From the NCBI GenBank assembly GCA_015486075.1, contig WFSG01000040.1:4647-68646 (forward strand): 64,000 bases of DNA, in the 5' to 3' direction. The notes under the pieces were generated by a model. That model was not told where the DNA came from, did not search any database, and saw only the letters and a program-made list of their open reading frames with translations. Positions 9,968 through 61,609 of this stretch are shown piece after piece. This DNA is from Deltaproteobacteria bacterium. Its GTDB lineage: Bacteria > Desulfobacterota > Desulfomonilia > UBA1062. Position numbers and translations under genes: made by a program. Positions within the stretch are counted from its first letter, which is position 1; every line of letters begins with the position of its first letter.

Positions 9968-9980
9968 CTACAGATCTCCT

Positions 9981-12503: not shown

Positions 12504-12538
12504 AACCCACCTCCCCTTTTGTTTCTACTTGTATTTTT

Positions 12539-13334: not shown

Positions 13335-13556
13335 ATGCACAATCAGAATTATTATTGCAAGCAAAAAATTGTGATGAGCCTATAAAAACATTAACGCTTG
13401 GCAGTCTTTATGTGCTATAAATAGTCACACTTACTAACATCAGGAAGACTAGTTGACCAGAATACCGTTCACACCATTAGAAAGAAAGATAGTGGGTCAG
13501 CTTCTGTTGCTACAATGTAATTTATCAAACGCACATTCATGCCTGAGGAATATTAT

Positions 13557-16325
13557 ATGAAGCGTAAAAAGAGCATGGCAGGCACGTTCACCTGGATTAT
13601 GTTCATCATGACCCTGGTTCCGGTTGCTATATTCGGTATCGCCTCGATAAGTGTGGAGTATCTCATGGGAGAACGTGAATGTCATGCACTGAGAGAGAGG
13701 TACATAGACTATCAGGAATCTATTGTCAAAAAAGAAGTTCAAGAGGCGGTAAAATACATAGAGTGGCGCAGGGCAAATTCAAGGATACCTCAAGAAGATC
13801 TCAAGAAAGAGATACTAAGATGGCTTTCCATGAAAAGGTACCGATCCCTTGGTAAAGAGGATGGCATCTTCTTTGTAAGAAATTTTGACGGTATACAGCT
13901 GATGAGTGTAAGCAAGCCAGAGATTGTTGGAAAGGACACGTCCAAGCTCACCGATCCTCACGGTATAAACACGCATAGACTTTTCATGGAGGTGATAAAA
14001 AATCCAGACGGTGGTTTTGCCGACTATTCCTGGTACGACCCGTACGAGAAAAGGATTACCCCTAAAAGGACCTTTGTTATGGCTGTTCCCGAGTGGAGAT
14101 GGTACATAGGCTCGGGATTTTGGTTTAACGACATCAATTCTGTTATCAACAAAGAAAAAAGCCGTATAGCACACACCCTAAGTATACAGGCCCTTGCAGC
14201 AATGGGGATAATACTTTTACTTGTGCCCTTTATATATGCGTTGTCCCGCTACATGGCAAAAAGCATTGACAAGAGCATGGCGAGCTTTACAGGCTTCTTC
14301 GATAGGGCCGCGACAGAGCTCACCCGTATTGACGAAAAAGCCATGGATTTCAGAGAGTTTGAGAGGCTGGCAACAAGTGCAAACCGTATGATAAAAGAAC
14401 TAAAGGTTGCCAGGCAGGGGATGGAAGACCTGCAAAGGATAGTAGACCTTAGTCCAATGGTGGCATTTCTGTGCCGTGCAGAGCAGGGATGGCCTGTAGA
14501 GCTTGTATCTAGGAACATCTCCAGCTTTGGGTACAGTCCTGAAGATTTTTATACCGGTAAACTCAACTACGCATCAATCATTCACCCTGACGATCTGGAC
14601 CGTGTCAATGACGAGGTCTCAAGGTTCAGCTCAGAAAAAGGCCGAAAGAGTTTCAGCCACGAATACAGGATACTTACTTCGTCAGGTGAGACACGCTGGG
14701 TGGATGATAGGACGCGTATAAGGAGAGATGCCACTGGCAAGGTTACCCATTACCAGGGCATAATACTGGACGTAACAGAGAGCAGGACAGCACAGCAAAG
14801 GCTGGTGGAAAGCGAGGAAAGGTACCGTACAGTGGTAGAAAACACGCACGATGGCTTGCTCATTGCAGATAATGAGTACCATATAACCTTTGCTAACAAA
14901 CAGCTCCTGAAAATCCTCGGCCGTACCGAAGAAGAGGTAATCGGCCATGACTTCAGGGACTTCTTGGACGAAGAAAGTGTTGGTATAGTTGCAGACCACT
15001 ACATGAGAAGGCAGATGGGTGAGAAAGTAGAGCCAAGGTACGAGTTCAATGTTGAAAGGAAAGATGGAGAGAGAAGGCGGGTCGAGATAAGCTCATCCAT
15101 TGTCCGGGATACGCAGGGTCATATTACGACCGTTGCCCAGCTAATAGACATAACTGACAAAAAACGGCTGGAGGAACAGCTGTTACTGGCACAGAAGATG
15201 GAGGCCGTTGGTACACTTGCAGGCGGTATTGCCCACGATTTTAACAACCTGCTTATGGGTATACTGGGCAATACCTCGCTCATGCTCATGGACATGGATC
15301 CCGACGATCCCCGTTACCAGAGGCTTAAGAACATCGAGCAGGCTGTGCACAGCGGGGCAGAGCTCACCAAGCAGCTCCTTGGCTATGCGAGAGGCGGAAA
15401 GTACGAGGTGAAATCAGCCGATCCTAACGATCTTGTAAAGGGCGCCCTTAACATGTTCGGCAGGACAAAGAAAGAGATAAGCATACATACCATGCTCCAA
15501 GAAGACGTGTGGAATATCGAGGTTGACAAATCGCAGATTGAACAGGTGTTGTTAAATATCTGTGTGAATGCCTGGCAGGCCATGCCAGAGGGCGGCGACC
15601 TCTACATACAGACACAAAACACGGTACTCGACGAGAACTACACCCGGGCCTACAACACGCAAGCAGGTAGATACGTGAAGATATCCTTTACCGATACAGG
15701 CCATGGCATGGATGACGAGACAAGAAAAAGGATCTTCGAACCCTTCTTCACCACAAAGCCAAAGGGGACAGGTACTGGCCTTGGCTTGGCCTCTGCTTAT
15801 GGGATTGTAAAGAATCATGGGGGCATTATAAACGTGTACAGCGAAAAAGGTAAGGGCTCTACATTCAACATATACCTACCTGCCTCGCAAAAGAAGGCAG
15901 TCAAGGAAAGGCTTATTGGAGATGCTATCACGACCATGGGATCAGCTACAATACTCATGGTAGACGACGAGGAGATGATACTAAAGGTTGGTTCTGATCT
16001 ACTCGCCAAGCTCGGCTACAAGGTACTTACAGCAACCAGCGGAGAGCAGGCAATAAACATATACAAGGGCAGGATGAACGAAATAGACCTGGTTATACTG
16101 GACATGATCATGCCCGGAATGAGCGGGCGGGATACATACAAGCGCCTCAAGAAGTTAAATGAAAATGTCAAGGTGCTACTTTCCAGCGGATATAGCGTAA
16201 ACGGCGAGGCAGAGGAATTATTGAGACTCGGCTGCAATGGTTTTATCCAGAAACCCTTCAGTGTAAGGGAGTTGCATGCAAAGACAAGCGAGCTAATAAA
16301 GGGAAAGAAAACCACCAAACCTTAG
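13557..16325 (+). CDS. hybrid sensor histidine kinase / response regulator with periplasmic sensor and PAS domains
   Basis: N-terminal TM segment, a Cache-like extracytoplasmic region and a second TM. Two PAS segments (...HPDDLDRV..., ...[19 protein letters not shown]...). HisKA H-box [13 protein letters not shown]; HATPase N/G boxes ([24 protein letters not shown]). A C-terminal REC domain ([10 protein letters not shown]...[14 protein letters not shown]). The alternative ATG at 13539 lacks an RBS. Confidence 0.85.
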
Positions 16326-16608: not shown

Positions 16609-17580
16609 ATGCTAGATAATAAAACAGGAAGGATATTTTACATATGCCCTGACTTTGCACCACCATCAGGCGGTGTAAAGAGATTATACACGCATGTCCA
16701 GATACTAAGGGATAACGGTTATGAGGCGTATATAGTGCATTTTAACAAGGGCTTCAGGCCGAACTGGTTCGAGCACTCGGTTCCCATTATATATTTCTCT
16801 GATAACCCGAGCTTTTCTTCAACCGATGTCCTGGTAATCCCCGAGGTGTTCCCCGGATTGATGAAGACACTCAAGGATGTACCCAAAAAGGTAGTAATAG
16901 CGCTAAATCCCCATTCCATATTTCAGAACATGGACACGGGTGAAAACTGGAAAGACTACGGTGTCAGCTGGGTCATGACAAATTCCAGCACCATAAAAAG
17001 GTTTATAGAATGGAGCATGGGCATTGAGAACGTGCTTTTAATAGACACGGCCATTGACCGCCGCATGTTCTACTATTCTCCCGGGTTAAAGGAACTGAGG
17101 GTATCCTACATAAAGAGAAAGGATTCACTCTCTCCAGTTGTTGTGAAGATACTGAGTTCAAGAAAAGATGGTATGCCTCCCGTGGAATACATTAAGATAG
17201 AGAACCTAAGAGTCGAGGACTATGCAGCAATTCTCAGGCAGTCCGAGATATACCTTACCACATCAAGCTTTGAGGGATTCCCCAGGGCCATCATGGAGGC
17301 CATGGCATGTGGATGTATATGTATTGGCTCGGATGGCATATGCGGCAAAGACTATATCATTCCCTCAGGCGACACACAGAACTTCATAAAGGTGGAGTCC
17401 ATGAATTTCATTGAACTCGCAGAACGCATGGAGGAGCTGATCAAGAGAATAGCTAGAAAAGACCCTCTTGTGGAAAGAATCAGGAAAAACGCCATTATTA
17501 CTTCATCAAGGTTCACCGAAGAGGCCGAGAAAGAAAGCGTGCTCAGGTTCTGGAAAACATACTTTGAAGCCATTCAATAA
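16609..17580 (+). CDS. glycosyltransferase (GT4-like retaining fold)
   Basis: C-terminal EX7E-type region SSFEGFPRAIMEAMACGCICIGSDG; 323 aa; first gene of the glycan operon. Confidence 0.65.
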   Translation: MLDNKTGRIFYICPDFAPPSGGVKRLYTHVQILRDNGYEAYIVHFNKGFRPNWFEHSVPIIYFSDNPSFSSTDVLVIPEVFPGLMKTLKDVPKKVVIALNPHSIFQNMDTGENWKDYGVSWVMTNSSTIKRFIEWSMGIENVLLIDTAIDRRMFYYSPGLKELRVSYIKRKDSLSPVVVKILSSRKDGMPPVEYIKIENLRVEDYAAILRQSEIYLTTSSFEGFPRAIMEAMACGCICIGSDGICGKDYIIPSGDTQNFIKVESMNFIELAERMEELIKRIARKDPLVERIRKNAIITSSRFTEEAEKESVLRFWKTYFEAIQ

Positions 17581-17590
17581 GGAGGAAAAA

Positions 17591-18373
17591 ATGAAGGTAG
17601 TGATCCTTTGCGGCGGCATGGGAACAAGGCTCAAGGAAGAGACAAACTACCGTCCCAAGCCAATGGTAAACATAGGAAGCCGCCCTATCCTCTGGCACAT
17701 AATGAAGATATACGCCCATTATGGATTTAAACAATTTGTACTAAGCCTGGGATACAAGGGGGAAATGATCAAGGAATTCTTCTATAACTACGATCTCTTA
17801 AACAATGATGCAACCCTCAAGCTAGGCCATCCCGAAGAGACGCACATTCACCGAAACCAGGACAACGAAGACGGCTGGGAGATAACACTGGCCGACACAG
17901 GAGAAAAGGCGTTAAAAGGTGCCCGCCTGAAAAGGATTGAGAAATACATTGATGATGTTGAATTCATGGCGACCTATGGGGACGGCGTTGCAAACATCGA
18001 TATAAGAAGCCTCTTATCGTTCCACCACAGCCACGGCAAGCTAGCCACTGTCACGGGTATCAACCCGGCTTCACGTTTTGGAGAGCTGAAGATAAGTGGC
18101 GACAAGGTGGAATCTTTCAACGAAAAACCCAATAACGGTTCGGGCCTGATAAACGGCGGTTTCTTTGTCTTTAACAGGGCCATATTCAACTACCTCTATG
18201 ATGGGGATGACTGCGATCTCGAAGTCGGTGCCCTGGAACAGATTGCACGTGAGGGCCAGCTAATGGTCTATAAACACAGGGGATTCTGGGCTTGCATGGA
18301 TACAATAAGGGATATGGACTATCTGAATAAACTCTGGGCTGAAGGCAAGGCCCTATGGAAGGTATGGGATTAG
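17591..18373 (+). CDS. rfbF: glucose-1-phosphate cytidylyltransferase
   Basis: N-terminal MKVVILCGGMGTRL nucleotidyltransferase motif with CDP-glucose pyrophosphorylase-type architecture. The start was trimmed to the ATG at 17591, which is preceded by GGAGGAAAAA. Confidence 0.85.
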   Translation: MKVVILCGGMGTRLKEETNYRPKPMVNIGSRPILWHIMKIYAHYGFKQFVLSLGYKGEMIKEFFYNYDLLNNDATLKLGHPEETHIHRNQDNEDGWEITLADTGEKALKGARLKRIEKYIDDVEFMATYGDGVANIDIRSLLSFHHSHGKLATVTGINPASRFGELKISGDKVESFNEKPNNGSGLINGGFFVFNRAIFNYLYDGDDCDLEVGALEQIAREGQLMVYKHRGFWACMDTIRDMDYLNKLWAEGKALWKVWD

Positions 18374-18442
18374 CTTAGACTCTAGTTATAACCTGGGTAT
18401 GACATCCTAATCTAGAAATCTAGAATCAAATTAATAGCAGAT

Positions 18443-19540
18443 ATGTTCGGCAATATTTACAGAGGCAAGAGAGTACTCGTCACAGGTGATACCGGGTTCA
18501 AGGGGTCATGGCTTGCCCTCTGGCTTCTAGACCAGGGGGCAGATATTGTGGGTTATTCAAAAGACATCCCAACACATCCTTCCCATCACCATATTCTAGC
18601 CCTAGATTACGAGACAGTCTCGGGTGATATATGTGACCTAGAGAAACTCCAAAAGGTTATCAAATCTTTTAACCCGGACATTGTATTCCATCTGGCGGCC
18701 CAATCCATAGTTCGGAAATCCTACATAAGGCCCGTAGAGACGTTTGAAACCAATGTCATTGGTACTGTTAATGTCCTTGAGGCCTGTAGGGATACAGAAT
18801 CTGTAAGGGCTATTGTGAACGTCACGAGCGATAAATGTTACGAAAACAGGGAGTGGCCCTGGGGTTACAGGGAAAACGACAGGCTAGGTGGACATGATCC
18901 ATACAGCGCATCAAAAGGGTGCGCTGAGTTGGTAACAACATGCTTTCAAAAGTCGTTCTTTCCCCTTGAAGAGTACCAGAAAAGCCACCAGACACTTGTT
19001 GCAAGCGTTAGGGCCGGGAATGTTATAGGAGGCGGAGACTGGGCTGAAGACCGGCTTGTCCCGGATATCATGCGTGCCGCTAGCCAGAATAAAAGGGTTC
19101 AAATTCGCAACCCCCATGCAGTAAGACCATGGCAACATGTCCTTGAGCCCCTATCAGGATATCTGCTCCTAGGACAACTACTGCTCGAAGGAAACAAAGA
19201 GTTTTCCGGGGCATGGAATTTCGGTCCAATCGATTACGGGCATAGAGAGGTGCTTTCAGTTATCAGAGAGTTACAAGAACATTGGCCAGATATAGATTAC
19301 AATATAAAGGCAGATGAAGAAGATCTGCACGAAGCAAACCTATTAAAACTTGACTGCTCAAAGGCATATACAAGGCTAAAATGGAAACCGGTGTGGGATA
19401 GCTCCACAACATTTGCCAAGACCGCACAATGGTACAGGGCATACTATGAATCGGGGCTTGTTTTGAGCGAGGAACAATTGGCAGAGTATATAACTGAAGC
19501 CAAGCAGAGACAGGTATCGTGGTCTTCCGATGAGGGTTAA
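18443..19540 (+). CDS. rfbG: CDP-glucose 4,6-dehydratase
   Basis: Extended SDR: VLVTGDTGFKGSWL; catalytic YSASK; 365 aa. Typical RfbG length, located next to rfbF. Confidence 0.85.
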   Translation: MFGNIYRGKRVLVTGDTGFKGSWLALWLLDQGADIVGYSKDIPTHPSHHHILALDYETVSGDICDLEKLQKVIKSFNPDIVFHLAAQSIVRKSYIRPVETFETNVIGTVNVLEACRDTESVRAIVNVTSDKCYENREWPWGYRENDRLGGHDPYSASKGCAELVTTCFQKSFFPLEEYQKSHQTLVASVRAGNVIGGGDWAEDRLVPDIMRAASQNKRVQIRNPHAVRPWQHVLEPLSGYLLLGQLLLEGNKEFSGAWNFGPIDYGHREVLSVIRELQEHWPDIDYNIKADEEDLHEANLLKLDCSKAYTRLKWKPVWDSSTTFAKTAQWYRAYYESGLVLSEEQLAEYITEAKQRQVSWSSDEG

Positions 19541-20081
19541 ACTAGTCTCCATCCGGGATGCTTTTGTCATTGAACCGGAACCAATTGAGGATGACCGCGG
19601 ATTATTCACCCGCGTATTCTGCCAGAACGAGCTGAACGACATCCTTCATGGTGAAAACATAGTTCAGATAAACCACTCTGTTACCTGGCAGAAAGGGGCC
19701 ATACGCGGGATGCACTTTCAATATCCACCCAGAGCAGAGATCAAGATAGTCAAGTGCCTGCGCGGTAGCATATTTGATGTCATGATTGACCTGCGCAAGA
19801 AATCTCCCACCTTTCTGAAGTGGCATGGGGAGGTCTTAACCTCGGAAAACATGAAGATGATGTATATACCTGAAGGATTTGCGCATGGTTTCCAGACATT
19901 GGAAAAAGACTGCGAGATACTTTATCTTCATACCGAGTTTTATAGCCCAGAATACGAGGGAGGTGTACGTTACGACGATCCCATGATCGAGATCTCTTGG
20001 CCTCTCGCTGTAACGGATATATCGAAGAAAGACCAGAACTATCCTTTACTATCCCCGGCCTTCGAGGGCATCTCCTTATGA
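19530..20081 (+). CDS. NDP-4-keto-6-deoxyhexose 3,5-epimerase (RmlC/cupin family)
   Basis: RmlC-like cupin of 183 aa (IRGMHFQ..., ...HGFQTL...). It overlaps the rfbG stop by 11 nt. Confidence 0.75.
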   Translation: MRVKLVSIRDAFVIEPEPIEDDRGLFTRVFCQNELNDILHGENIVQINHSVTWQKGAIRGMHFQYPPRAEIKIVKCLRGSIFDVMIDLRKKSPTFLKWHGEVLTSENMKMMYIPEGFAHGFQTLEKDCEILYLHTEFYSPEYEGGVRYDDPMIEISWPLAVTDISKKDQNYPLLSPAFEGISL

Positions 20082-21304
20082 AATGCAGGTTCTGCGGCAA
20101 TTATCTTAAACATCAATTCATCGATATGGTTAGCGCTCCACCATCCAATTCATTCTTAACAAAAGAACAACTAGATAAGCCCGAAGTCTTTTACCCCTTA
20201 AGACTAATGGTCTGCGAGAAATGTTGGCTTGTACAGATCGATGAATACAAGAAGTCGGAAGAAATCTTTAATAAGGATTATACCTACTTTTCCTCATACT
20301 CAAAGACATGGCTCAGGCATGCAAAGAAATATGTGGACATGATCATCTCCAGGTTAAGTCTTAATGCCACCTCCCTGGTTATGGAGATCGCATCCAATGA
20401 TGGATACCTACTGCAATATTTTAAAGAAAAAGGGATCCCATGCATGGGCATTGAACCTAGCGTCAGTACCGCCCAAGAAGCAAGAAAGAAAGGGATTGAG
20501 ACATTGGAGGAATTCTTTGGCGTAGGACTCGCGGAGAAACTTTCCAATGAGGGCAGAAAGCCGGACCTGATCATAGGCAACAATGTACTTGCCCATGTCC
20601 CAAATATAAATGACTTCGTCAAGGGGCTAAAGATTATCCTGAAACCTGGTGGTGTTATAACCATGGAATTTCCTCACTTAATGCGCCTAGTTGAGGGAAA
20701 CCAGTTCGATACAATCTACCACGAGCACTTCTCGTATTTCTCATTACACACGGTAAACCGGATATTCTCAAGTCACGACCTTGTTATCTTCGATGTGGAG
20801 GAGCTCCCAACGCATGGCGGGTCCTTGAGGATCTATGCCAGGCATGTTGAAGACAACTCAAAACCTGTAGAGCAAAGAGTTGCTGCACTATTGGAAAAAG
20901 AGAAAACACGAGGGATGCTTGCGATAGATTATTATCTTGGTTTTCAGCATAAGGCGGACAAAGTGAAATATGCGTTTCTTTCATTTCTGGTGGAGCAGAA
21001 AAAACGTGGGAAGAAAGTGGTTGCTTACGGGGCTGCGGCTAAAGGCAACACCTTGCTAAATTACTGCGGGGTTAAAAAAGACTTGATAGAGTTTGTTGTG
21101 GATGCATCTCCTTATAAACAGGGCAAATATCTGCCTGGTAGCCACATACCAGTGGTTGCAGAAAAAGAGATCAAAAGGACAAAGCCGGATTATGTACTTA
21201 TCCTACCTTGGAATATCAAGGATGAGATCATGGAACAGCTAGGTTATATCCACGAATGGGACGGAAGGTTTGTGGTACCTATTCCAGAAATCGAGATATC
21301 TTGA
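20078..21304 (+). CDS. NDP-hexose C-methyltransferase (TylCIII-like; N-terminal Zn ribbon + class I SAM MTase + C-MT C-terminal domain)
   Basis: N-terminal CRFCGN...CEKC zinc ribbon; methyltransferase motif I VMEIASNDGYLL; C-terminal C-methyltransferase domain (VAYGAAAKGNTLLNYCG). The ATG at 20078 overlaps the preceding stop (ATGA). Confidence 0.8.
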   Translation: MKCRFCGNYLKHQFIDMVSAPPSNSFLTKEQLDKPEVFYPLRLMVCEKCWLVQIDEYKKSEEIFNKDYTYFSSYSKTWLRHAKKYVDMIISRLSLNATSLVMEIASNDGYLLQYFKEKGIPCMGIEPSVSTAQEARKKGIETLEEFFGVGLAEKLSNEGRKPDLIIGNNVLAHVPNINDFVKGLKIILKPGGVITMEFPHLMRLVEGNQFDTIYHEHFSYFSLHTVNRIFSSHDLVIFDVEELPTHGGSLRIYARHVEDNSKPVEQRVAALLEKEKTRGMLAIDYYLGFQHKADKVKYAFLSFLVEQKKRGKKVVAYGAAAKGNTLLNYCGVKKDLIEFVVDASPYKQGKYLPGSHIPVVAEKEIKRTKPDYVLILPWNIKDEIMEQLGYIHEWDGRFVVPIPEIEIS

Positions 21305-21321
21305 TTAAGGAAGGCGATGAT

Positions 21322-22215
21322 ATGAAGGTATTGGTTACTGGAGCAACTGGTTTTATTGGAGGTTATGTTGTTCGACAATTAATTAATCAAGGATATCGAG
21401 TTGTTGCAACTTCAAGAAATCCTGAAAAGGCAAAGGCCTTCGAATGGATTTCTCAGGTACAATACATTCCCTGTGATCTCAATGTGATGCGGAATGACTT
21501 CTTCCAATTTTTTCATCAACCTGATTTACTGATTCATTTGGCATGGGAAGGTTTGCCAAATTACGAAGACTTGTTTCATTTTGAGAAGAACCTGTTTTCC
21601 AATTACTCGTTTCTGAAAAACATAATCGAACATGGACTAAAACGCTTGGTGGTAACAGGTACATGCCTTGAATATGGAATGCAAAACGGAGCTTTAAGTG
21701 AGGACATGGAGGCTAGACCTGATAATCCTTATGGTTTGGCAAAGGATACCTTGCGAAGGTTCCTGGAACAACTGCAGAAAAAGATCAATTTTGATCTAAA
21801 ATGGATACGTCTATTTTATATGTATGGAAAAGGTCAGAGTCCCAATTCAATCCTATCTCAACTTGATAGATCGTTGGAAAATGGAGAAACCAACTTTAAC
21901 ATGTCGGGCGGAGAACAATTAAGAGATTATTTGCCGGTTGAAAGGGCTGCTACATACATAATTAGAATCGCGATGCAAGATAAGGTAAACGGAATTATCA
22001 ACTGTTGCAGCGGTAAACCTATCTCTATTAGAAAACTCGTGGAAAATTATTTAGAGAGGAAGCAAAAAAGTATCCATCTGAATTTAGGGTTTTATTCATA
22101 CACCGACTATGAACCAATGGCTTTTTGGGGAGATGCAACAAAGCTTAACATTGCTTTATCCAGTTTTGATCTTGATAAAGGTGATAGATCTTATGAACCA
22201 GATAGAACAATTTAA
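21322..22215 (+). CDS. NAD-dependent sugar epimerase/reductase (extended SDR; likely NDP-4-ketohexose reductase)
   Basis: MKVLVTGATGFIGGYV Rossmann motif; catalytic Y in YGLAKD; 298 aa. The start was trimmed to the ATG at 21322. Confidence 0.75.
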   Translation: MKVLVTGATGFIGGYVVRQLINQGYRVVATSRNPEKAKAFEWISQVQYIPCDLNVMRNDFFQFFHQPDLLIHLAWEGLPNYEDLFHFEKNLFSNYSFLKNIIEHGLKRLVVTGTCLEYGMQNGALSEDMEARPDNPYGLAKDTLRRFLEQLQKKINFDLKWIRLFYMYGKGQSPNSILSQLDRSLENGETNFNMSGGEQLRDYLPVERAATYIIRIAMQDKVNGIINCCSGKPISIRKLVENYLERKQKSIHLNLGFYSYTDYEPMAFWGDATKLNIALSSFDLDKGDRSYEPDRTI

Positions 22216-22927
22216 ACGTGAATGTATGAGGCGTATCAGGCAGTATGGAAAGAACAAGAAATTACTAGATGCGGCGAGACTTTTTGTACAAGAATCTACC
22301 ATACCCAAATACTCCTACAACTTCACCTGGCTTGGCCGTCCAATAATTCAGTATCCACAGGACATCATCGCAATGCAGGAGATTATATGGCAGGTAAAAC
22401 CCAACCTTATTATAGAAACAGGGATTGCACATGGTGGAGGACTTATCTTCTACGCGTCCATGCTTGAACTTCTGGGTGGAGATGGCCAGGTGCTTGGTAT
22501 CGACATTGATATCAGGGAACACAACAGGGTTGAGATAGAAAGACACCCCATGTTCAAACGAATTACAATGATAGAAGGTTCGTCTATTGATGAAGATGTT
22601 GTCCAGAAGGTCCGTGACTTTGCAAAGGATAAAAAGAGGGTTCTAGTTGCACTTGATTCCATGCATACACACGAACACGTGCTAAAAGAGCTTGAACTTT
22701 ATTCTCCCCTGGTAACAAAAGGTAGCTACCTTGTTGTCTTTGACACCATCATTGAAGACATGCCAGATGGCTTCTTTCCCGACCGACCATGGGGAAAGGG
22801 TAACAATCCCAAGACAGCGGTATGGGAATTCATGAAAAACAATGACCGTTTTGAGATCGACAAGGAGATTGAGAATAAATTGCTGATCACCGTTGCACCC
22901 GATGGATATCTAAGATGCATTAAGTAA
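22193..22927 (+). CDS. CmcI/cephalosporin-hydroxylase-family sugar O-methyltransferase
   Basis: CmcI-family motif IIETGIAHGGGLIFYA, of the rhamnosyl-O-methyltransferase-like family. The start at 22193 overlaps the preceding gene's 3' end. Confidence 0.7.
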   Translation: MNQIEQFKRECMRRIRQYGKNKKLLDAARLFVQESTIPKYSYNFTWLGRPIIQYPQDIIAMQEIIWQVKPNLIIETGIAHGGGLIFYASMLELLGGDGQVLGIDIDIREHNRVEIERHPMFKRITMIEGSSIDEDVVQKVRDFAKDKKRVLVALDSMHTHEHVLKELELYSPLVTKGSYLVVFDTIIEDMPDGFFPDRPWGKGNNPKTAVWEFMKNNDRFEIDKEIENKLLITVAPDGYLRCIK

Positions 22928-31282: not shown

Positions 31283-32590
31283 ATGGAGCCAGGATATACT
31301 TTCCCTGATCAAATGAAGTTTCTTACAGCAAAGGACAATATTGTGCTTACCTTTTTTGGCCAGGACTATGCACTTGGGCCCATATCCTACCCGGACGTGG
31401 ATATATCGAGGATACTCGTTGTGACAGATGACCTTGCAAAGGCCTTGTACAGGATATACCCCGAGTTCCTAGAGCCCGTGAGTTTCGATGCAACGAGGAT
31501 CCCATCTTTTCCCGAGCCACTGGTGGGTTCTCCATCAGGCATACCCGAAGGCAAGAGACTCATGATCATAAGGGATGCAGGCATAGGGGACATGATCATG
31601 CTGATACCTGCACTTAGAAAACTTAAGCAAATGGTAGGGCATAAGGTCGAGATAGGACTATCCACCTTGAAAGACAGGCACCCGCTGGTTGAAGGCCTTG
31701 GATACGTGGACAGGTTATATCCCCTCCCCTTGAGGCTCTCCGAGCTGGTCAGTGAGACAGATTACTTCGTGGGTTTCCCTGACATAAAGGGCATATACAA
31801 TAGGGTAAACATGACTGACTTCTACTTGGATTCAATGTGCATGGATCCAGGTTCCATACCTTCTGCAGACAAGTTACCCAAGATACCGGAAAGCCTACTG
31901 TTGCATGAGGATACAATCAGGAAGATAAGAAAACTCGCTGGCTATAGGTCTCTTAAGGTCTTTTATTCGCCGGGAGCAAGCGATCCCATAAGGCGACTGC
32001 CACCCTGTATACTATTGACACTTGCCACGTCTTTTACCGACATGATCTTCCTCACGCCCGAGAAGATCCCTGAAGAGGCAAAGGGGCTTGATAATGTTAC
32101 TGGTATAGATACGTCATCAGGCCTTGCATCCTTTGCAACAGCAATAAGTGAATGTGACATCCTGGTCTCATCGGATAGCGGTGCATACCACATAGCCGCT
32201 GCAATAGGTAAACCTTCCCTTGTATTCTTCGGGCCCATACCATCCATGCTCAGGTCAACCTATTATCCATATGTGATCAGCCTGGACCCCTTTGATTACA
32301 TGGGCGAGACATGCGTGCCACCCTGCGGTATACATGCCAGGACGCAGATGGCATCCTTAAAGCCCATTGGTGCGAACATGGTAAGGGATTTGAGGCAGGG
32401 CACCGAGATAATCACCTTCTCGGGCCAGATGTTCACTTACGATCCCTCACTGGGTTGTCCTGAGGCACAGGCCAAGGGCACTAGGTTTAGCCCTTGCCTG
32501 GAATCATTTTCTGATGAATCCATTTTACAAGGTTTTGAGAGGGTCTTAGAACTAAGCAATCAAATAGCACCCATAACGCACGCTAGCTGA
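31283..32590 (+). CDS. GT9-family glycosyltransferase (heptosyltransferase-like), paralog 1
   Basis: ADP-heptose:LPS heptosyltransferase-like fold (RLMIIRDAGIGDMIMLIPAL..., ...SSDSGAYHIAAAIGKPSLVFFGP). About 45% identical to the downstream paralog. The alternative start is at 31313. Confidence 0.65.
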   Translation: MEPGYTFPDQMKFLTAKDNIVLTFFGQDYALGPISYPDVDISRILVVTDDLAKALYRIYPEFLEPVSFDATRIPSFPEPLVGSPSGIPEGKRLMIIRDAGIGDMIMLIPALRKLKQMVGHKVEIGLSTLKDRHPLVEGLGYVDRLYPLPLRLSELVSETDYFVGFPDIKGIYNRVNMTDFYLDSMCMDPGSIPSADKLPKIPESLLLHEDTIRKIRKLAGYRSLKVFYSPGASDPIRRLPPCILLTLATSFTDMIFLTPEKIPEEAKGLDNVTGIDTSSGLASFATAISECDILVSSDSGAYHIAAAIGKPSLVFFGPIPSMLRSTYYPYVISLDPFDYMGETCVPPCGIHARTQMASLKPIGANMVRDLRQGTEIITFSGQMFTYDPSLGCPEAQAKGTRFSPCLESFSDESILQGFERVLELSNQIAPITHAS

Positions 32591-32615: not shown

Positions 32616-33905
32616 ATGACATTAGCATACCTTGCATCAACAGCTGAGGGCCGTTTTTTCTACCACGGCCATTCATACAAGCTCTCCCCCATTACCTATC
32701 CAGACGTAAATATCCATAACATACTTGTTATGGGAGGCCCTAGCCTGGCAAGGTCAATATGCAAGGAAAACAGTGGGCTCATGACCGGTCTGAATTTCGA
32801 TGCCTCCTTGATTCCAGGTTTCCCCGAGCCACTTGGCATGGCCGTGTCCGAGATACCATGCGGGAAAAGGCTCATGCTTCTGAGGGCAGGAGGCATAGGG
32901 GACCTGATAATGCTCACCCCTGCATTGAGGCAGCTCAGATCAAGGTGCAGATCAGGGGTAAAGATAGCGCTTTCAACTCTCCAGGACAGAAAGGCATTGT
33001 TCGAGGACCTGGGCTTTGTAGATGATTTTTATCCACATCCCATAAGGCTATCAGACCTCGTGGACTCGGCTGATTTCTACGTTGACTTCTCAGACAAAAG
33101 GGGCATCTTCAACCACGTTGACATGATAGACTTCCACCTTGACTGCCTGGGTATAGACCCATCAAGTGTGCCCAAAGAACAGAAAATACCCGAGATATCC
33201 AAGGGACTTTCAAGAAACCATGCAATAAGGGAAGAGATGAAAAGGCTATCAAGGCATGGCCGCCCGCTTGTGATCTATTCACCTGGCGCAAGCGACAGGA
33301 TAAGGTACCTACCAGACGACATACTCGGGCTTCTTGCAACAAGTTTCAAGGGCATCGACTACGTTGTACCCGGTAGCATGCCTAAGACCTGTGAGGGCAT
33401 GGAGAACGTATTCAGTATTGATACGTCTTCTGGCCTGGATGCCTTTGTGACCGCAATCGCAGCATCACACGCTGTCATCACCACGGACAGCTCTGCTTAC
33501 CACATAGCATCGGCACTAAGCAAGCCATGCCTTGTTTTCTTTGGCCCTATCTCGTCGAGTATACGGAGCAAATACTATCCAACGATCGTGGCACTTGATG
33601 CTTGCTATTTCGGCAAGACATGTGCAAGTCCGTGCGGGATAAGTGCACTTACAGAGACACCACCTGTGATACCCATTGGAGCAAACAGGGTAAGGGCACT
33701 TGAAAAAGGGGTAAAGATAACTACTTACTCGGGCGAGTCATTCACCTTTGATCCTGGTAAAGGATGTCCCGAGGCACAGTACCTGGGCAGTAGCACAAGC
33801 CCTTGCCTCATGTCATTTAGCCCGGAAGACATAATAAAGGGATTCGAGAGAGTGATGGATATGGTGGAAAGCCCGGAGAGGGAAAGAAAGAGAGAATCGC
33901 TGTGA
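32616..33905 (+). CDS. GT9-family glycosyltransferase (heptosyltransferase-like), paralog 2
   Basis: Same architecture as 31283-32590 (RLMLLRAGGIGDLIMLTPAL, TTDSSAYHIASALSKPCLVFFGP). Tandem duplicate. Confidence 0.65.
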   Translation: MTLAYLASTAEGRFFYHGHSYKLSPITYPDVNIHNILVMGGPSLARSICKENSGLMTGLNFDASLIPGFPEPLGMAVSEIPCGKRLMLLRAGGIGDLIMLTPALRQLRSRCRSGVKIALSTLQDRKALFEDLGFVDDFYPHPIRLSDLVDSADFYVDFSDKRGIFNHVDMIDFHLDCLGIDPSSVPKEQKIPEISKGLSRNHAIREEMKRLSRHGRPLVIYSPGASDRIRYLPDDILGLLATSFKGIDYVVPGSMPKTCEGMENVFSIDTSSGLDAFVTAIAASHAVITTDSSAYHIASALSKPCLVFFGPISSSIRSKYYPTIVALDACYFGKTCASPCGISALTETPPVIPIGANRVRALEKGVKITTYSGESFTFDPGKGCPEAQYLGSSTSPCLMSFSPEDIIKGFERVMDMVESPERERKRESL

Positions 33906-36433
33906 GTACCATATCGTTCTGCATGATCGTAAAGAATGCCCAGGATGATCTGGGTGAAATCCTTCCTATAATGGCAAAGGTCTCGGACGAGGTCATAGTT
34001 GTAGACACCGGGTCAACAGATAACACCCCTGATGTTGCCAGGACACTCGGTGCAAGCGTTATTGAAATAACATGGAAGGATTCCTTTGCTGAGGCCAGGA
34101 ACACTTACATAGATGCTGCAAGGGGAGACTGGATCATATCCATAGACGCGGACGAGAGGATTGCAGAGAAAGACCTTCACCACATAGCAGAAGCAAAGCA
34201 AAAGCCCCCCCATGGTTTCCTTATGACTACGAGGAATTATGGCAATGATCATGGGGTTGAAGGCTTCAGGCCCTGCACTGGCGAATATCCTGAGTTTGAA
34301 AATGGCTTCAAGGGATGGAGCCCATCCACAAAGGTAAGGATGTTTCCCAGGGTAAAAGGGCTCTACTACACCGGGGAGGTGAGGGAGCTCATAGAGCCCG
34401 GGCTTAAAAGGCTTGGCATACCCTTGGGTGAGGTGCTCACGCCAATACACCATTTTGGAACGCAATCCAGATCAAAGCGCCTATACTACAGGCAACTACT
34501 AGAGAAAAAGGTGCGATCCACGCCCAAGGACCCCAGGGCCATGATAGAGCTCGCAGTTGAGGATTTTCACCTGGGGAGACTGGACAAGGCCATAAGCGAG
34601 GCGGAAAGAGCCATATCCCTCCATGAGGAGGGATATAGAGGCCTTTACTTTGACCTGGCAAGTGCCTATAACCTCCTGGGCGCTGCATACATGAAGGTAG
34701 GGAAGAAGGATAAAGCACTTGAGGCATTCGACGCAGGCATAAAGTCAGGCGGTAGAAACAAGGACGTGCTTAAAAAAAATAAAGGTATATTGCTCTCACA
34801 AGGTATGCGCCCCTCTCTGGGCGTGGTGATGATAGTAAAGGACGAGGAGAAAGACCTGCCGAATATACTGGGCGATATAAAAGATGTGGTAGACGAGATA
34901 GTGGTCGTTGACACGGGTTCCAAAGACCACACGGTAGACGTGGCAAAAGATTTCGGGGCAAAGGTGGGTTACTTCGAGTGGTGTGACGACTTTTCAAAGG
35001 CAAGGAATGCATCCATAGACATGGCTGACTCAGACTATTTACTTTGGCTGGATGCAGACGACAGGATACCTCCAGAGGAGGCGGCCAAGCTACTGAGATT
35101 AAAGAAGAGCCTAAAACCAGGCAAAGATGCTGCATGGATGCTAAAGATAGTCAACACGGACAGGCAAGGTGGAGATACAGTAAGCTACCAGCTGAGGATA
35201 TTCCCGAGAAGGGATGACATGAGGTTTGTAAACAGGGTGCACGAGCAGATATTAGAAGTGGTCCAGAAGGCCGGGATTAAGATAGAATCAGCGGATATCA
35301 CCATAAGGCACACAGGCTACGATGATGAGGCGTCAAGGCTCTTAAAGGCAAGGAGAAACCTAAGGATATTACTCGACGAGGTAGGCCAGGGTAATGTCTC
35401 AAGCTCCAGGTATTTCTTCATAGCTTCATCGTACTTTGCCCTGCACGAATACGAGAGATCCCTTGAATACATCGGGAAGGCAAGGAAGAATTCATTTGGA
35501 AGCGAAAACTGGCTAAAGTACAGTTACTCTCTTGCCGCTGACTGTTACCTGAGGCTGGGCAACAAAGAAAGGGCAGTCCAGGAGTTTGGAGAGGCCACCA
35601 GTATCTACGAAAAGAGCGGGCTCATGCATTATTTCCTAGCAATGACATGCCTTAATGCAGGAATGTTCGAGGATGCTGTAAAGGCCTTTGAAAAAACTGC
35701 ATCCCTTGGCATAGAGATAGAGACATACCCTGTTCCACCAGACATACAGGAGAGTGCACCCTATTACTATGGTGTTGCCTTGGAAAGGCTTGGCAGGACC
35801 AATGAGGCCATGAAGGCATTCAGGACAGCCATAAAGATAAATCCATCACACTTTTTGGCCACCAGGGATCTTGGACTCAGCCTTCTCAAGGCAGGAGATA
35901 TGGACCAATCCCTTTCCTTCCTCGAGAAGGCAAAGAGGCTTGCCCAGGGATACGACCGCGTGCTCTGGCTTAGCATGGCAAAGATATACGATAGGCTTGG
36001 GATGACATCAAGGGCACTTGAAATCTACAGGGAGTCCGTGGGAATAGACCCCTATGACACGGATGCCCTTACTGGCCTGGTGGAGGCAAGCATGAAGGTG
36101 GACGACGTGGAGAGCCTTGTCCTCGGCATGGAGGGTCTCATGAATAACCTTGGAATGGATACGAACATGGTACTAGAGACCGTGGAGGACATAGCAGGTA
36201 CATGCTCTGACATAGCCAGGCGTCTCTTTGAGTCCCAAGATACCTTTAATGCCGAGAAACTCGTCAACTGCGCTTTGAAGCTGGACAAGAAATGTGCCAA
36301 GGCATACCTACTCGCGGCCGATATAAAGATCGCATCAGGGCAAAGAGAAGCAGGTGCCGACTGGCTCGAGAAGGCATTAAGGGCGGGAACACCTACCGAC
36401 GAGATAAAAAAAAGGATGCAGGGACTTTCCTAG
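33902..36433 (+). CDS. tandem GT2 glycosyltransferase with TPR repeat regions (GT2-TPR-GT2-TPR)
   Basis: Two GT2 cores (FCMIVKNAQDDL...VDTGSTDNT at about 33902-34560; GVVMIVKDEEKDL...VDTGSKDHT at about 34810-35330). Each is followed by TPR-like helical repeats, with a long TPR region at 35330-36433. Its start overlaps the preceding stop. Confidence 0.75.
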   Translation: MSTISFCMIVKNAQDDLGEILPIMAKVSDEVIVVDTGSTDNTPDVARTLGASVIEITWKDSFAEARNTYIDAARGDWIISIDADERIAEKDLHHIAEAKQKPPHGFLMTTRNYGNDHGVEGFRPCTGEYPEFENGFKGWSPSTKVRMFPRVKGLYYTGEVRELIEPGLKRLGIPLGEVLTPIHHFGTQSRSKRLYYRQLLEKKVRSTPKDPRAMIELAVEDFHLGRLDKAISEAERAISLHEEGYRGLYFDLASAYNLLGAAYMKVGKKDKALEAFDAGIKSGGRNKDVLKKNKGILLSQGMRPSLGVVMIVKDEEKDLPNILGDIKDVVDEIVVVDTGSKDHTVDVAKDFGAKVGYFEWCDDFSKARNASIDMADSDYLLWLDADDRIPPEEAAKLLRLKKSLKPGKDAAWMLKIVNTDRQGGDTVSYQLRIFPRRDDMRFVNRVHEQILEVVQKAGIKIESADITIRHTGYDDEASRLLKARRNLRILLDEVGQGNVSSSRYFFIASSYFALHEYERSLEYIGKARKNSFGSENWLKYSYSLAADCYLRLGNKERAVQEFGEATSIYEKSGLMHYFLAMTCLNAGMFEDAVKAFEKTASLGIEIETYPVPPDIQESAPYYYGVALERLGRTNEAMKAFRTAIKINPSHFLATRDLGLSLLKAGDMDQSLSFLEKAKRLAQGYDRVLWLSMAKIYDRLGMTSRALEIYRESVGIDPYDTDALTGLVEASMKVDDVESLVLGMEGLMNNLGMDTNMVLETVEDIAGTCSDIARRLFESQDTFNAEKLVNCALKLDKKCAKAYLLAADIKIASGQREAGADWLEKALRAGTPTDEIKKRMQGLS

Positions 36434-38857
36434 ATGAGGATACTGTACTTCAGGTTTGACCTGACCCTGGTGGATGACGACATCATGGAGGGATTCAAGT
36501 CCCTTGGTGCATCCGTAGAGACGGTTGACGTAATAACCCGCGGCAAGAGCAAGTCAAGCCCCATCTACCTGGACGAGCTTGTGCACAGGGTGCATAGGTT
36601 TAGGCCGGATATCATCATGTGCTCAAACGAGAATGCCTTGGACGACGAGGGCCTGTTCTCCAGGGTATTCGCATATTACCACGTGCCCCTTGTCACCTGG
36701 TTCGTGGACAGGCCAGTGGTCTCGCCTGCCGCAAGGCAGAAGAAATTCCTTAAGCATGCAAGTATCATATTCGTTATAGACAGATCCCACATGCAAGGCC
36801 TGAAAAATGAAGGCTTCGACAATGTGCACCTTTTGCCACTTGCTGCAAACCCGAGGAGATCAAGGGAACCTATAGAGAAATGGAGCATGCCACCAGTGTT
36901 TGTTGGAAAGCTTGACCTGGCCAGGTCAAGAGAGGCACTATCAAGGCTCAGGGAAGAGTGGCCCAGCATGAACAGGCTGGACATGGAATTTATAGAGGGT
37001 GCCATTGAATACTACAGGCTCAAGTATTCAATGCATGTAGCAGCCGCAATAAAAGAGCTTATAGAAGAAACTGGCTTCAGGCCTGGCATACCCCCTGGTG
37101 CCATGAATGAGCTAGAGAGGTTCATGGAATACGAGGCAGGGCTCAGGAACAGGGTTGAGATTATATCAGGCATAAAGGACCTAGGCGTGACAACCGTAGG
37201 AGAGAGGGACTGGAGGCTTGTGGTGGGAGAGAACAACGCCCGGGGATACGTGGCCTACGGTTCAGACGAGCTTACAGACATATACAACAGGAGTCTTGCA
37301 ACCATAAACATAACCAGGCCACAGCTTAAAGACGCTGTTAACCAGAGGGCCTTTGACGTGCCCCTTGCTGGTGGCCTTCTACTAACCGATGCAAGGGAGC
37401 AGGTCTTCGAACTATTCGATGTGCCAGAAGAAATGGAGGTCTACACATCCATACAGGACTTGAGGCAGAAGATAATGCACTTCAAGGATAATCCTGGTGA
37501 GCGCCTGGCCAGGATAACAAGGGGCAAGAAAAGGATCATGGGAGAGCACCTCTACAGGCACAGGCTTGAAGACATGCTGGATATCATAGGTGCTACCAGG
37601 CTAAGCTTTGACATCCCGGAACATGACATGGCCTTTAAGAGGATAGAGCCCTACCTGCCGGGACCTGCCATGGAGATCCACGTGAACGAAAGACATGGAT
37701 GCATACTCTTTACGAGGCCCGGAGACCTGGTGTGCGAGGACATAGCCTGGGGCATGAGAAAGGCTGGCATTGCCTGCTCCCTGTACAACACATCCTTAAC
37801 AGACGGGCCAGGCGGGAGAACAGTCACCTTTGACATGGAAAAAATAAAGGCCATGCTGGAAGAACTCAAGCCTGACTTTGTTATATCCAATAATGGCCTC
37901 GGCGCTGATGCAAATGGGGCCATACAGGAATTACTGGCCATAATGGGTATACCCTTTGTAACGTGGTACACGGACGAGCCTAGCCTGGTGGAATCCGAAG
38001 GCATATTACCTTACCATGCGAAAAATACCATTGTCTTCAGCGTCGAGGGCACATATATCCCCATGCTCGAGAAAAGAGGGTTTGTACACGTGGGCCAGCT
38101 AGACCTGGCCGTGAACACGGATAGGTTCTACCCTCTAGAAGGAGAGGCCCCTATATCTGACATCGTGTTTGTCGGGTCCTCGGGCAAGAAACAGATAGAT
38201 GCAATAAAGGCAAGTCTAAAACGCATGGATGTAGATGTAGACAGCCTATCCTCCCACATTGAGCGCATTGTGCCTATTTACATGGCCAATTGGCAATCCC
38301 CGGTAGAAGAAGTGTTTGAACAGGCATGGGAAGGTGAAACATTGGAAGAAACCATAAGACGACCTGTACTTGCATGGATAGAGCACAGGGCCGGCCAGGA
38401 GCTGAGGCTTAAGGTGCTAAACAGCATAAGAGGACTGGACCTCAAGGTCATAGGCGAAGAACACTGGGCAGTACTCATTGGCCATGAGTACTATGGAGGG
38501 GAAATTGTTTATACAAAAGACAACCTTGCAAGGATCTACTCGACCACCCCGATAATTTTAAACATCTCGAGGCCACAGTTGAAGACCGCACTGAACCAGA
38601 GGATATACGATGTACCTGCATGCAATGGTTTCCTTGTGACTGATAAAAGGGAAAGATTACAACAGGTGTTCGGCGAGGACGAGATGGCAAGCTACGAGTA
38701 TTCATCCAACATATCCTCCCTGCTAAGGTACTACCTTGAGAGGCCTGGGCTCAGAAAGGAAATGGCCCAGAGTGCAAGGAAGAGAGTTCTAGATAGCCAC
38801 ACCTATGTCCACAGGGCAAAAGAAATACTCGACGTAGTAATCAGGATTATATCTTAG
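36434..38857 (+). CDS. internally duplicated CgeB-like (DUF3880 + Glyco_trans_1_2) glycosyltransferase
   Basis: Two homologous halves (about 36434-37625 and 37630-38857), e.g. ...VPLVTWFVDRP / ...IPFVTWYTDEP and ...NITRPQLKDAVNQRAFDVPLAGGLLLTD / ...NISRPQLKTALNQRIYDVPACNGFLVTD. The same family as the CgeB-like domain inside the 2769-aa protein. Confidence 0.7.
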   Translation: MRILYFRFDLTLVDDDIMEGFKSLGASVETVDVITRGKSKSSPIYLDELVHRVHRFRPDIIMCSNENALDDEGLFSRVFAYYHVPLVTWFVDRPVVSPAARQKKFLKHASIIFVIDRSHMQGLKNEGFDNVHLLPLAANPRRSREPIEKWSMPPVFVGKLDLARSREALSRLREEWPSMNRLDMEFIEGAIEYYRLKYSMHVAAAIKELIEETGFRPGIPPGAMNELERFMEYEAGLRNRVEIISGIKDLGVTTVGERDWRLVVGENNARGYVAYGSDELTDIYNRSLATINITRPQLKDAVNQRAFDVPLAGGLLLTDAREQVFELFDVPEEMEVYTSIQDLRQKIMHFKDNPGERLARITRGKKRIMGEHLYRHRLEDMLDIIGATRLSFDIPEHDMAFKRIEPYLPGPAMEIHVNERHGCILFTRPGDLVCEDIAWGMRKAGIACSLYNTSLTDGPGGRTVTFDMEKIKAMLEELKPDFVISNNGLGADANGAIQELLAIMGIPFVTWYTDEPSLVESEGILPYHAKNTIVFSVEGTYIPMLEKRGFVHVGQLDLAVNTDRFYPLEGEAPISDIVFVGSSGKKQIDAIKASLKRMDVDVDSLSSHIERIVPIYMANWQSPVEEVFEQAWEGETLEETIRRPVLAWIEHRAGQELRLKVLNSIRGLDLKVIGEEHWAVLIGHEYYGGEIVYTKDNLARIYSTTPIILNISRPQLKTALNQRIYDVPACNGFLVTDKRERLQQVFGEDEMASYEYSSNISSLLRYYLERPGLRKEMAQSARKRVLDSHTYVHRAKEILDVVIRIIS

Positions 38858-61548: not shown

Positions 61549-61609
61549 GTTACAACACTAGTCAGCTAACTACCACAGGAAATTCTTACTCCTAGGACGT
61601 CTCCAGGAT

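Follow-up and report, generated by a model that had tools for sequence, protein, structure and literature searches.

Here, we analyzed a 64,000-nucleotide (nt) stretch of the genome of a deltaproteobacterium (lineage UBA1062 of the Desulfomonilia; contig WFSG01000040.1, positions 4,647 to 68,646), referred to below as the window, and focused on a cassette of six genes that appears to supply a C-branched, O-methylated deoxyhexose activated with cytidine diphosphate (CDP). The cassette consists of six plus-strand open reading frames (ORFs) whose outer edges fall exactly on positions 17591 and 22927. The genes are co-directional and closely packed, with intergenic gaps of 69, −11, −4, 17 and −23 nt from rfbF to the O-methyltransferase gene, and the start of the C-methyltransferase gene overlaps the stop of the epimerase gene (ATGA). 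They are listed here with the families and solved structures that identify them; SAM stands for S-adenosylmethionine, NDP for nucleoside diphosphate and SDR for short-chain dehydrogenase/reductase.

17591..18373, plus strand: RfbF/DdhA, glucose-1-phosphate cytidylyltransferase (TIGR02623; 1TZF)
18443..19540, plus strand: RfbG/DdhB, the 4,6-dehydratase of CDP-glucose (TIGR02622; 1WVG, 1RKX)
19530..20081, plus strand: RmlC-type cupin epimerase (PF00908, TIGR01221; 1DZR), overlapping rfbG by 11 nt
20078..21304, plus strand: SAM-dependent NDP-hexose C-methyltransferase of the TylC3/TcaB9/MtmC family (PF08421, PF13489, PF08484)
21322..22215, plus strand: extended SDR (PF01370, E = 2e-30)
22193..22927, plus strand: SAM methyltransferase of the CmcI/rhamnosyl-O-methyltransferase family (PF04989), overlapping the SDR gene by 23 nt

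The first two enzymes are strict members of their families. RfbF scores 341.7 bits against the NCBIfam equivalog model TIGR02623 (cutoff 300.25) and aligns over its full length (residues 2-260) with the solved enzyme from S. typhi (1TZF, E = 8.5e-82), and RfbG scores 490.1 bits against TIGR02622 (NCBIfam equivalog cutoff 278), with 1WVG (E = 5e-119) and 1RKX (E = 6e-116) as its matches among solved structures. The RfbG residues T128-S-D130-K131, Y154 and K158 align with both of these structures, so that the SDR triad is kept, and D130-K131 is the Asp-Lys pair by which CDP-specific enzymes are typified. On the basis of this family membership, we regard two predictions as secure, namely, that RfbF would convert glucose-1-phosphate and CTP to CDP-D-glucose and that RfbG would convert CDP-D-glucose to CDP-4-keto-6-deoxy-D-glucose. 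The steps that follow we infer from the chemistry of the respective families and from conserved synteny. The epimerase matches PF00908 (E = 5e-62) and scores 176.7 bits against the equivalog model TIGR01221 (cutoff 155.75), and it resembles RmlC (1DZR, E = 2e-41) more closely than NovW (2C0Z, E = 1.5e-28). Its residues H62, K72, Y132 and D168 align with H63, K73, Y133 and D170 of RmlC, and its expected role on the CDP-4-keto sugar is that of a 5- or 3,5-epimerase; what argues for CDP rather than deoxythymidine diphosphate (dTDP) as its nucleotide is the synteny with rfbF and rfbG.

The C-methyltransferase carries all three domains of its family, that is, PF08421 (Methyltransf_13), the class I domain PF13489 and the C-terminal PF08484 (Methyltransf_14, E = 4e-67), and has full-length matches to the solved structures of MtmC (4RV9, E = 2e-77), KijD1 (5T64, E = 5.5e-69) and TcaB9 (3NDI, E = 3e-65). 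Its four Zn cysteines (C3, C6, C46 and C49), the SAM motif (E103-I-A-S-N-D-G109) and the five matches to the TcaB9 active site (Y68, H173, Y214, E216 and H217, which include the Y-x-E-H motif) are all present and conserved with respect to TcaB9, KijD1 and MtmC. The latter five correspond to the TcaB9 residues that were reportedly mutated in mechanistic studies (Tyr76, His181, Tyr222, Glu224 and His225, with an index offset of 2 in the PDB file). Cysteines, SAM motif and active-site residues are invariant in an alignment of 23 sequences from the clade of this C-methyltransferase, whose members are unusually conserved (55-83% identity across phyla). Identity to the 3-C-methyltransferases MtmC and TcaB9 is 34% and 32%, respectively. 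By analogy with these enzymes, the window protein would remove the proton beside the 4-keto group and place the SAM methyl group on C-3.

The extended SDR contains the motif GATGFIG at residues 7-13, the triad T114, Y137 and K141, and the segment T30-S-R-N33 after strand beta-2. It matches the solved structures of MoeE5 (6KV9, E = 1.5e-22) and of the NDP-4-keto-6-deoxyhexose reductase Rmd (2PK3, E = 8e-16), a 4-reductase, and its T-S-R-N segment is identical to that of Rmd, which favors an NADP(H)-using reductase over an epimerase with tightly bound NAD+. No curated NCBIfam model scored above its cutoff for this protein. Nine of its 120 closest homologues (70-83% identity) bear the JGI label "dTDP-6-deoxy-L-talose 4-dehydrogenase (NAD+)," i.e., Tll, whose reduction of the 4-keto-L-rhamnose intermediate yields the talo and not the manno configuration (PMC11549994). 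We predict that the SDR is an NAD(P)H-dependent 4-ketoreductase of this 6-deoxy-L-talose-forming type. The last protein of the cassette matches PF04989 with 326 bits (E = 1e-97), a family which includes the mycobacterial rhamnosyl 2-O-methyltransferase, and aligns with CmcI (2BM8, E = 4e-11) in ETGIAHGG and in the Asp of LDSMH and of FDTI. From these matches, it is a putative sugar O-methyltransferase.

Genes like these are far from confined to the window. Database relatives of the C-methyltransferase number more than 8,000 at E ≤ 1e-30, and the top 120 of them are all 69-83% identical to it. When a library clustered at 50% identity was searched exhaustively with HMMER, 4,848 representatives matched at E ≤ 1e-30, a figure that rises to 21,587 at E ≤ 1e-3. 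Exact copies of its motifs FDTIYHEH or YGAAAKGN occur in at least 600 species genomes (one genome per species). The best 80 of these comprise Acidobacteriota, Campylobacterota, Bacteroidota, Planctomycetota, Cyanobacteria, Beta- and Gammaproteobacteria, Nitrospirota and Fibrobacteres as well as an Asgard archaeon and a methanogen. We searched these 80 loci with the window proteins (tblastn), counting each feature over the subset of loci in which it could be evaluated. At 40% identity or more, rfbF lies near the C-methyltransferase gene in 67 of the 80 loci and rfbG in 52; the epimerase is found in 72. The order rfbF-rfbG-epimerase directly 5' of the C-methyltransferase gene recurs in 44 of 74 evaluable loci, a Tll-like SDR gene follows directly 3' in 22 of 70, and the contiguous six-gene array is present in exact order in 8 of 68. 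The carriers of the exact array belong to the Bacteroidota, Gammaproteobacteria, Lentisphaerae, Fibrobacteres and Planctomycetes (genomes of Gillisia, Ferruginibacter, Saprospiraceae, Rhodanobacteraceae, Lentisphaerae, Fibrobacteres, the cultured Exilibacterium tricleocarpae and Fuerstiella).

The same core occurs on metagenome contigs, where the tailoring genes vary (radical SAM/SPASM proteins and methyltransferases of the TylF and CmcI types are among them), and on plasmids from cultured bacteria. A Desulfolutivibrio plasmid shows the order rfbF-rfbG-"rmlC family"-methyltransferase-acyltransferase-SDR, plasmids of Brachyspira hyodysenteriae carry the core with rfbF adjacent, and rfbF lies near more distant C-methyltransferase genes (31-43% identity) on plasmids of Leisingera, Tsukamurella and Legionella adelaidensis. 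Since rfbF accompanies the gene in most of the closest loci and in those on plasmids, CDP is the normal context of this C-methyltransferase family outside Streptomyces antibiotic clusters such as that of C-1027. An earlier note on this DNA had called C-branched sugars rare outside antibiotic pathways and CDP an uncommon activating nucleotide for them. This argument from rarity fails, because the C-methyltransferase occurs in at least 600 species, rfbF in 67 of the 80 nearest loci and the exact array in 8 of 68, and because a trio of rfbF, rfbG and C-methyltransferase genes is already annotated in S. meliloti. The cassette is a common, horizontally shared module, for which gene-by-gene annotation by automatic pipelines already exists.

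Substitutions occur at the RfbG position. In 15 of the 80 loci, it is held by a different extended SDR of about 350 residues (ITGNMGYIGP...SSCSVYG...YAKSK), among them L014, L016, L021, L036, L039, L055 and L056, where this gene lies between rfbF and the epimerase gene. A replacement of RfbG by radical SAM proteins in loci lacking an RfbG match was considered and rejected, as these 15 are extended SDRs; a "radical SAM protein" occupies the position only in the Brachyspira hyodysenteriae plasmids (L093, 7334-8437). Such genes may provide alternative routes to the 4-keto intermediate or lead to a different intermediate. On the plasmid of Leisingera aquaemixtae (L097, 4900-7242), a 780-residue "NAD-dependent epimerase/dehydratase family protein" extends over the dehydratase position as well as the match to the C-methyltransferase, and two further class I methyltransferases come after it; this protein may be a natural dehydratase-C-methyltransferase fusion adjoining rfbF.

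With moderate confidence, we read the six genes as a route from glucose-1-phosphate to a CDP-activated 6-deoxyhexose carrying both a C-methyl and an O-methyl group. This reading is supported by equivalog and structure matches, by the intact motifs of the first five enzymes, by the operon-like spacing, by the conserved synteny and by the lack of a 3-deoxygenation pair: among the window's ORFs of at least 150 residues, taken as a set of non-overlapping genes (all but a few short ones distant from the cluster), a Pfam scan detected neither E1 (the DegT-type, pyridoxamine phosphate-dependent 3-dehydrase) nor E3 (the flavodoxin/ferredoxin-NADP-reductase type), so that C-3 would retain its oxygen. 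Each of the six functions that the earlier note had assigned agrees with the family, structure and motif matches; the missing E1/E3 pair, which it had also reported, is confirmed, and its product class, a CDP-6-deoxy-C-methyl-O-methyl-hexose, holds up as a reasonable prediction from the gene families. The loss of SAM-binding residues from the C-methyltransferase, which that note had raised as a possible objection, is not what we find, as the Zn cysteines, the stretch E103-IASNDG109 and the active-site residues are all in place.

In the proposed route, the product of RfbG would be acted on by the epimerase and the C-methyltransferase; the former would invert C-5, and C-3 as well if it acted before methylation, and the sugar would enter the L-series either way. 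Reduction of the 4-keto group by the Tll-like SDR, with NAD(P)H as the donor, would then probably give the talo configuration, and the CmcI/Rv2959c-family enzyme would methylate a hydroxyl group, most likely O-2 by analogy with the rhamnosyl 2-O-methyltransferase. Finally, soluble multi-domain glycosyltransferases encoded downstream would attach the sugar to an acceptor, possibly a protein. The most likely product is CDP-vinelose, a nucleotide sugar reportedly isolated from Azotobacter vinelandii (by Okuda, Suzuki and Suzuki, who are said to have described it in J Biol Chem in 1967/68), or a stereoisomer that differs from it at C-4/C-3. The Tll-type label of the SDR homologues and the kinship of the O-methyltransferase with the 2-O-methyltransferase of PF04989 together point to CDP-6-deoxy-3-C-methyl-2-O-methyl-L-talose, that is, to CDP-vinelose exactly; we propose this identity by analogy and only tentatively.

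Several observations weigh against so specific an assignment. The Tll label of the SDR homologues is an automatic JGI annotation. In the O-methyltransferase, the SAM motif is kept and the metal site is partial, as one metal-site acid of CmcI (E186) aligns with F; moreover, the protein scores 104.5 bits against the rhamnosyl O-methyltransferase equivalog NF045824, for which the cutoff is 400, and by this measure it is a member of the same superfamily as that enzyme and not its orthologue. In SAM motif I of the C-methyltransferase, Ala takes the place of the first Gly, a change common to the whole clade, and the sequence does not reveal which carbon is C-methylated: the C-methyltransferase from the C-1027 cluster, a 5-C-methylating enzyme (the sugar of that cluster being 5,5-dimethyl), is 36% identical to the window protein, and similarity does not separate C-3 from C-5. 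The timing of O-methylation is a further point. Rv2959c, the characterized sugar-modifying member of PF04989, methylates rhamnose that is already attached to a lipid or phenolic acceptor, and by analogy the window enzyme could likewise act after glycosyl transfer.

The last point leads to the best-surviving alternative, in which the nucleotide sugar is only C-methylated (a CDP-6-deoxy-3-C-methyl-L-hexose) and the CmcI-family enzyme methylates this sugar, or another residue, after transfer. Besides the precedent of Rv2959c, this fits the distribution of the CmcI gene, whose linkage to the rest of the cassette is the loosest: 33 of the 80 loci have it, frequently with several genes between it and the SDR gene, and 22 of them have it without a Tll-like SDR. 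On the other hand, CDP-vinelose was reportedly isolated with the 2-O-methyl group already on the nucleotide sugar, and the gene lies directly 3' of the reductase gene in the 8 of 68 loci with the exact array and in the window, where the two overlap by 23 nt. We consider methylation after transfer less likely than the main reading but well possible. Less probable still is a noviose-like route, in which methylation at C-5 (as by NovU and SgcA3) after the RmlC-like enzyme gives a CDP-6-deoxy-5-C-methyl (gem-dimethyl) L-hexose that is then 4-reduced and O-methylated. The enzyme set does parallel NovT, NovW, NovU and NovS plus NovP, NovW is among the structure matches of the epimerase, and the identity of the C-methyltransferase to the C-1027 enzyme is on a par with that to the 3-C-methyltransferases; however, the epimerase is nearer to true RmlC than to NovW, the five catalytic residues of the 3-C-methyltransferase TcaB9 are all conserved (5-C enzymes may share them), and the C-methyl deoxyhexoses that we found in bacterial glycans, namely, virenose, Rha3CMe (evalose) and Man3CMe, are 3-C-methyl sugars, as is vinelose, the one CDP-linked example known to us. 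Finally, it is very improbable that two pathways are mixed here, with RfbF and RfbG feeding another CDP-sugar (e.g., a 3,6-dideoxyhexose with E1 and E3 encoded elsewhere) and the epimerase, C-methyltransferase and SDR using a 4-keto sugar linked to dTDP or guanosine diphosphate (GDP): although the epimerase lies above the cutoff of a dTDP-4-dehydrorhamnose 3,5-epimerase equivalog, dTDP-sugars are the substrates of all solved C-methyltransferase relatives and our view is limited to 64 kb of the genome, what speaks against such a mixture is that synteny is fixed (rfbF in 67 of 80 loci and the four-gene order in 44 of 74) and translationally coupled overlaps join the rfbG, epimerase and C-methyltransferase genes, and neither rmlA/rmlB nor gmd nor E1/E3 genes were found in the window.

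The cassette lies near the front of a longer co-directional array, in which every gene 3' of it up to position 38857 is on the plus strand, with gaps of −4 to 31 nt. The other members of the array are listed below (GT denotes glycosyltransferase families).

16609..17580, plus strand: GT4-family glycosyltransferase (PF00534, E = 3e-13), first gene of the array, ending 10 nt upstream of rfbF, with no transmembrane helix
22959..31268, plus strand: soluble fusion protein of 2,769 residues with Pfam matches to six GT2 domains, Glyco_trans_1_2, B12-binding/radical SAM and a C-terminal TPR
31283..32590 and 32616..33905, plus strand: two weakly GT9-like proteins (PF01075, E = 8e-7 and 2e-4), after gaps of 14 and 25 nt
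33902..36433, plus strand: protein with two GT2 domains (PF00535, E = 1e-38) and TPR families, overlapping the preceding gene by 4 nt
36434..38857, plus strand: DUF3880/Glyco_trans_1_2 (CgeB-like) protein (PF13524, E = 3e-50; PF12996), last of the array, after a gap of 0 nt

The best explanation of this arrangement is that the six genes are the sugar-supply module at the front of a glycosylation operon of about 22 kb (16609-38857). There is no gene for a flippase, polymerase, ABC exporter or initiating phosphoglycosyltransferase, and a transmembrane helix was predicted in none of the 12 proteins of the array (the neighboring histidine kinase, used as a control, gave two); the fusion protein has a single borderline hydrophobic segment. 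This fusion protein is a candidate user of the CDP-sugar. Its B12-binding and radical SAM domains, at residues ~980-1301, make up a cobalamin radical SAM module within a glycosyltransferase megaprotein, through which the glycan could be C-methylated further or otherwise modified by radical chemistry. Scans for sigma-70 promoters and terminators around the operon gave no excess over shuffled sequence, and promoters were fewer. The G+C content falls to 0.40-0.42 at 20-28 kb, compared with 0.45-0.51 in the flanks, which suggests horizontal acquisition. Many metagenomic proteins share 76-83% identity with the C-methyltransferase, whereas identities of the seryl-tRNA synthetase from the same genome fall to about 70% beyond its ten closest relatives; together with the dip in G+C content, this contrast between the two proteins is consistent with lateral transfer of the cassette. 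Homologues of the synthetase assign the organism to uncultured Thermodesulfobacteriota, with Desulfomonilia (about 70% identity) as the nearest class that has a name. The same array is present on several contigs from metagenome-assembled genomes, where the fusion-protein gene also lies 3' of the cassette.

Upstream of the operon, after a gap of 283 nt, lies the gene for the hybrid Cache/PAS histidine kinase mentioned above (13539-16325, plus strand; receiver domain and two transmembrane helices). Its position is conserved in the copies from metagenome-assembled genomes, and it may regulate the operon. Just upstream of the kinase gene, a minus-strand group (8921-13300) encodes a pyruvate formate-lyase-like glycyl-radical enzyme (840 residues), a radical SAM activase and a GntR/FadR-type regulator, and is unrelated to the sugar operon. 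Distant from the operon, on the minus strand at 60715-62500, we found genes for an FkbM-family methyltransferase and a classical SDR, with no evident tie to the sugar pathway.

Neither a flagellin nor a type IV pilin gene is present within the 64 kb of the window. Among the other loci, flagellin genes lie within 8 kb of the cassette in four from Burkholderiales (L040, L072, L079 and L081), and type IV pilin genes within the same distance in three from gammaproteobacteria (L046, L047 and L052). One of the latter, that of Exilibacterium tricleocarpae (L047, 5601-16210), shows the exact six-gene array followed by two GT2 genes, a TPR protein gene and a pilin gene. Caldimonas mangrovi and Curvibacter sp. 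are cultured carriers in which flagellin genes adjoin the cassette. The proximity of filament genes in these loci suggests that the sugar decorates filament proteins in the lineages concerned. Such neighbors support looking at surface glycoproteins, as the earlier note had proposed, but are no evidence for the window itself.

In structural glycobiology, 3-C-methyl sugars are described as uncommon (PMC9912281 and PMC7203242), yet genes for CDP-linked C-methyl deoxyhexoses occur in hundreds of species from many phyla; these sugars are probably under-detected. Our literature search found no biochemical characterization of any enzyme of the CDP-linked C-methyltransferase clade and no paper that joins the C-methyltransferase, CDP-glucose and a branched sugar. 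The papers that we found on CDP-4-keto-6-deoxy sugars and methyltransferases deal with flagellin glycosylation islands or Salmonella genomics, where the sugar is named solely as a precursor of CDP-paratose, and not with this pathway. On its own, the window adds one more instance of a sugar-supply module that many genomes share, and the precedent for its class of product dates back about 60 years. With some reserve, we suggest that the cassette might be the genetic basis of CDP-vinelose-type sugars, and that 3-C-methyl, O-methyl 6-deoxyhexoses might commonly, if so far unnoticed, decorate the surface proteins and glycans of environmental prokaryotes. We base this suggestion on the presence of the C-methyltransferase in at least 600 species, including Asgard and methanogen archaea, on the frequent pilin and flagellin islands and on the 55-83% identity across phyla. 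If it is true, genes would be assigned to a nucleotide sugar known since the 1960s, and an established function of the cassette would provide a mass signature, an increment of 174 Da for each C- and O-methylated deoxyhexose residue, for glycoproteomics of pilins, flagellins and other surface proteins, as well as CDP-specific C-methyltransferases for glycoengineering.

Several known systems share parts of the proposed route. The pathways to dTDP-L-mycarose (TylC3/TylK/TylC2 and EryBIII/BVII/BIV) and dTDP-L-noviose (NovW/NovU/NovS plus NovP) follow the same logic with the same enzyme families, namely, a 4-keto-6-deoxy intermediate, a Methyltransf_13/14 C-methyltransferase, an RmlC-type epimerase, a 4-ketoreductase and a late O-methyltransferase. 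They differ from the window in using dTDP, in being encoded in secondary-metabolite loci rather than in a glycosyltransferase operon and in the level of identity, which is limited to ∼32-36%; the mycarose route also needs a 2-deoxygenation. The CDP-3,6-dideoxyhexose routes of Salmonella and Yersinia (DdhA-D/AscA-D) start with two enzymes of the same function as RfbF and RfbG but continue with E1 and E3, where the window instead has a C-methyltransferase and an O-methyltransferase. In ascarylose synthesis, the 5-epimerase AscE and then the 4-reductase AscF act on a CDP-4-keto sugar, a precedent for the corresponding steps proposed here.

On pSymB of S. meliloti, SMb21416-18 are listed as ddhA, ddhB and "NDP-hexose 3-C-methyltransferase" in a comparative genomics study of 2013 (PMC4053727). 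The C-methyltransferase of this adjacent rfbF-rfbG-C-methyltransferase trio is 49% identical to that of the window, but, unlike the window, the locus lacks neighboring genes for an RmlC-like epimerase, a Tll-like SDR and a CmcI methyltransferase. In Coxiella burnetii, virenose (6-deoxy-3-C-methyl-gulose) is a sugar of a surface glycan and not of an antibiotic, for which the TylCIII-like CBU_0691 acts on an NDP-4-keto-6-deoxyhexose (PMC3539893). That system differs from the window in that GDP- or dTDP-based routes were proposed, in its lack of O-methylation and in the configuration of the sugar.

Chemical precedents for CDP-linked branched sugars are CDP-vinelose and CDP-yersiniose. We are aware of no gene assignment for vinelose; our literature search found no paper containing the word "vinelose," and no Azotobacter is among the best 80 of the at least 600 C-methyltransferase loci. 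PMC5335844, citing Gavini 1997, credits A. vinelandii with an rfbG gene. The stereochemistry and O-methyl position of the window product are predictions. CDP-vinelose is CDP-activated, 6-deoxy, C-methyl-branched, O-methylated and of L-talo configuration, and each of these features has a candidate enzyme in the window.

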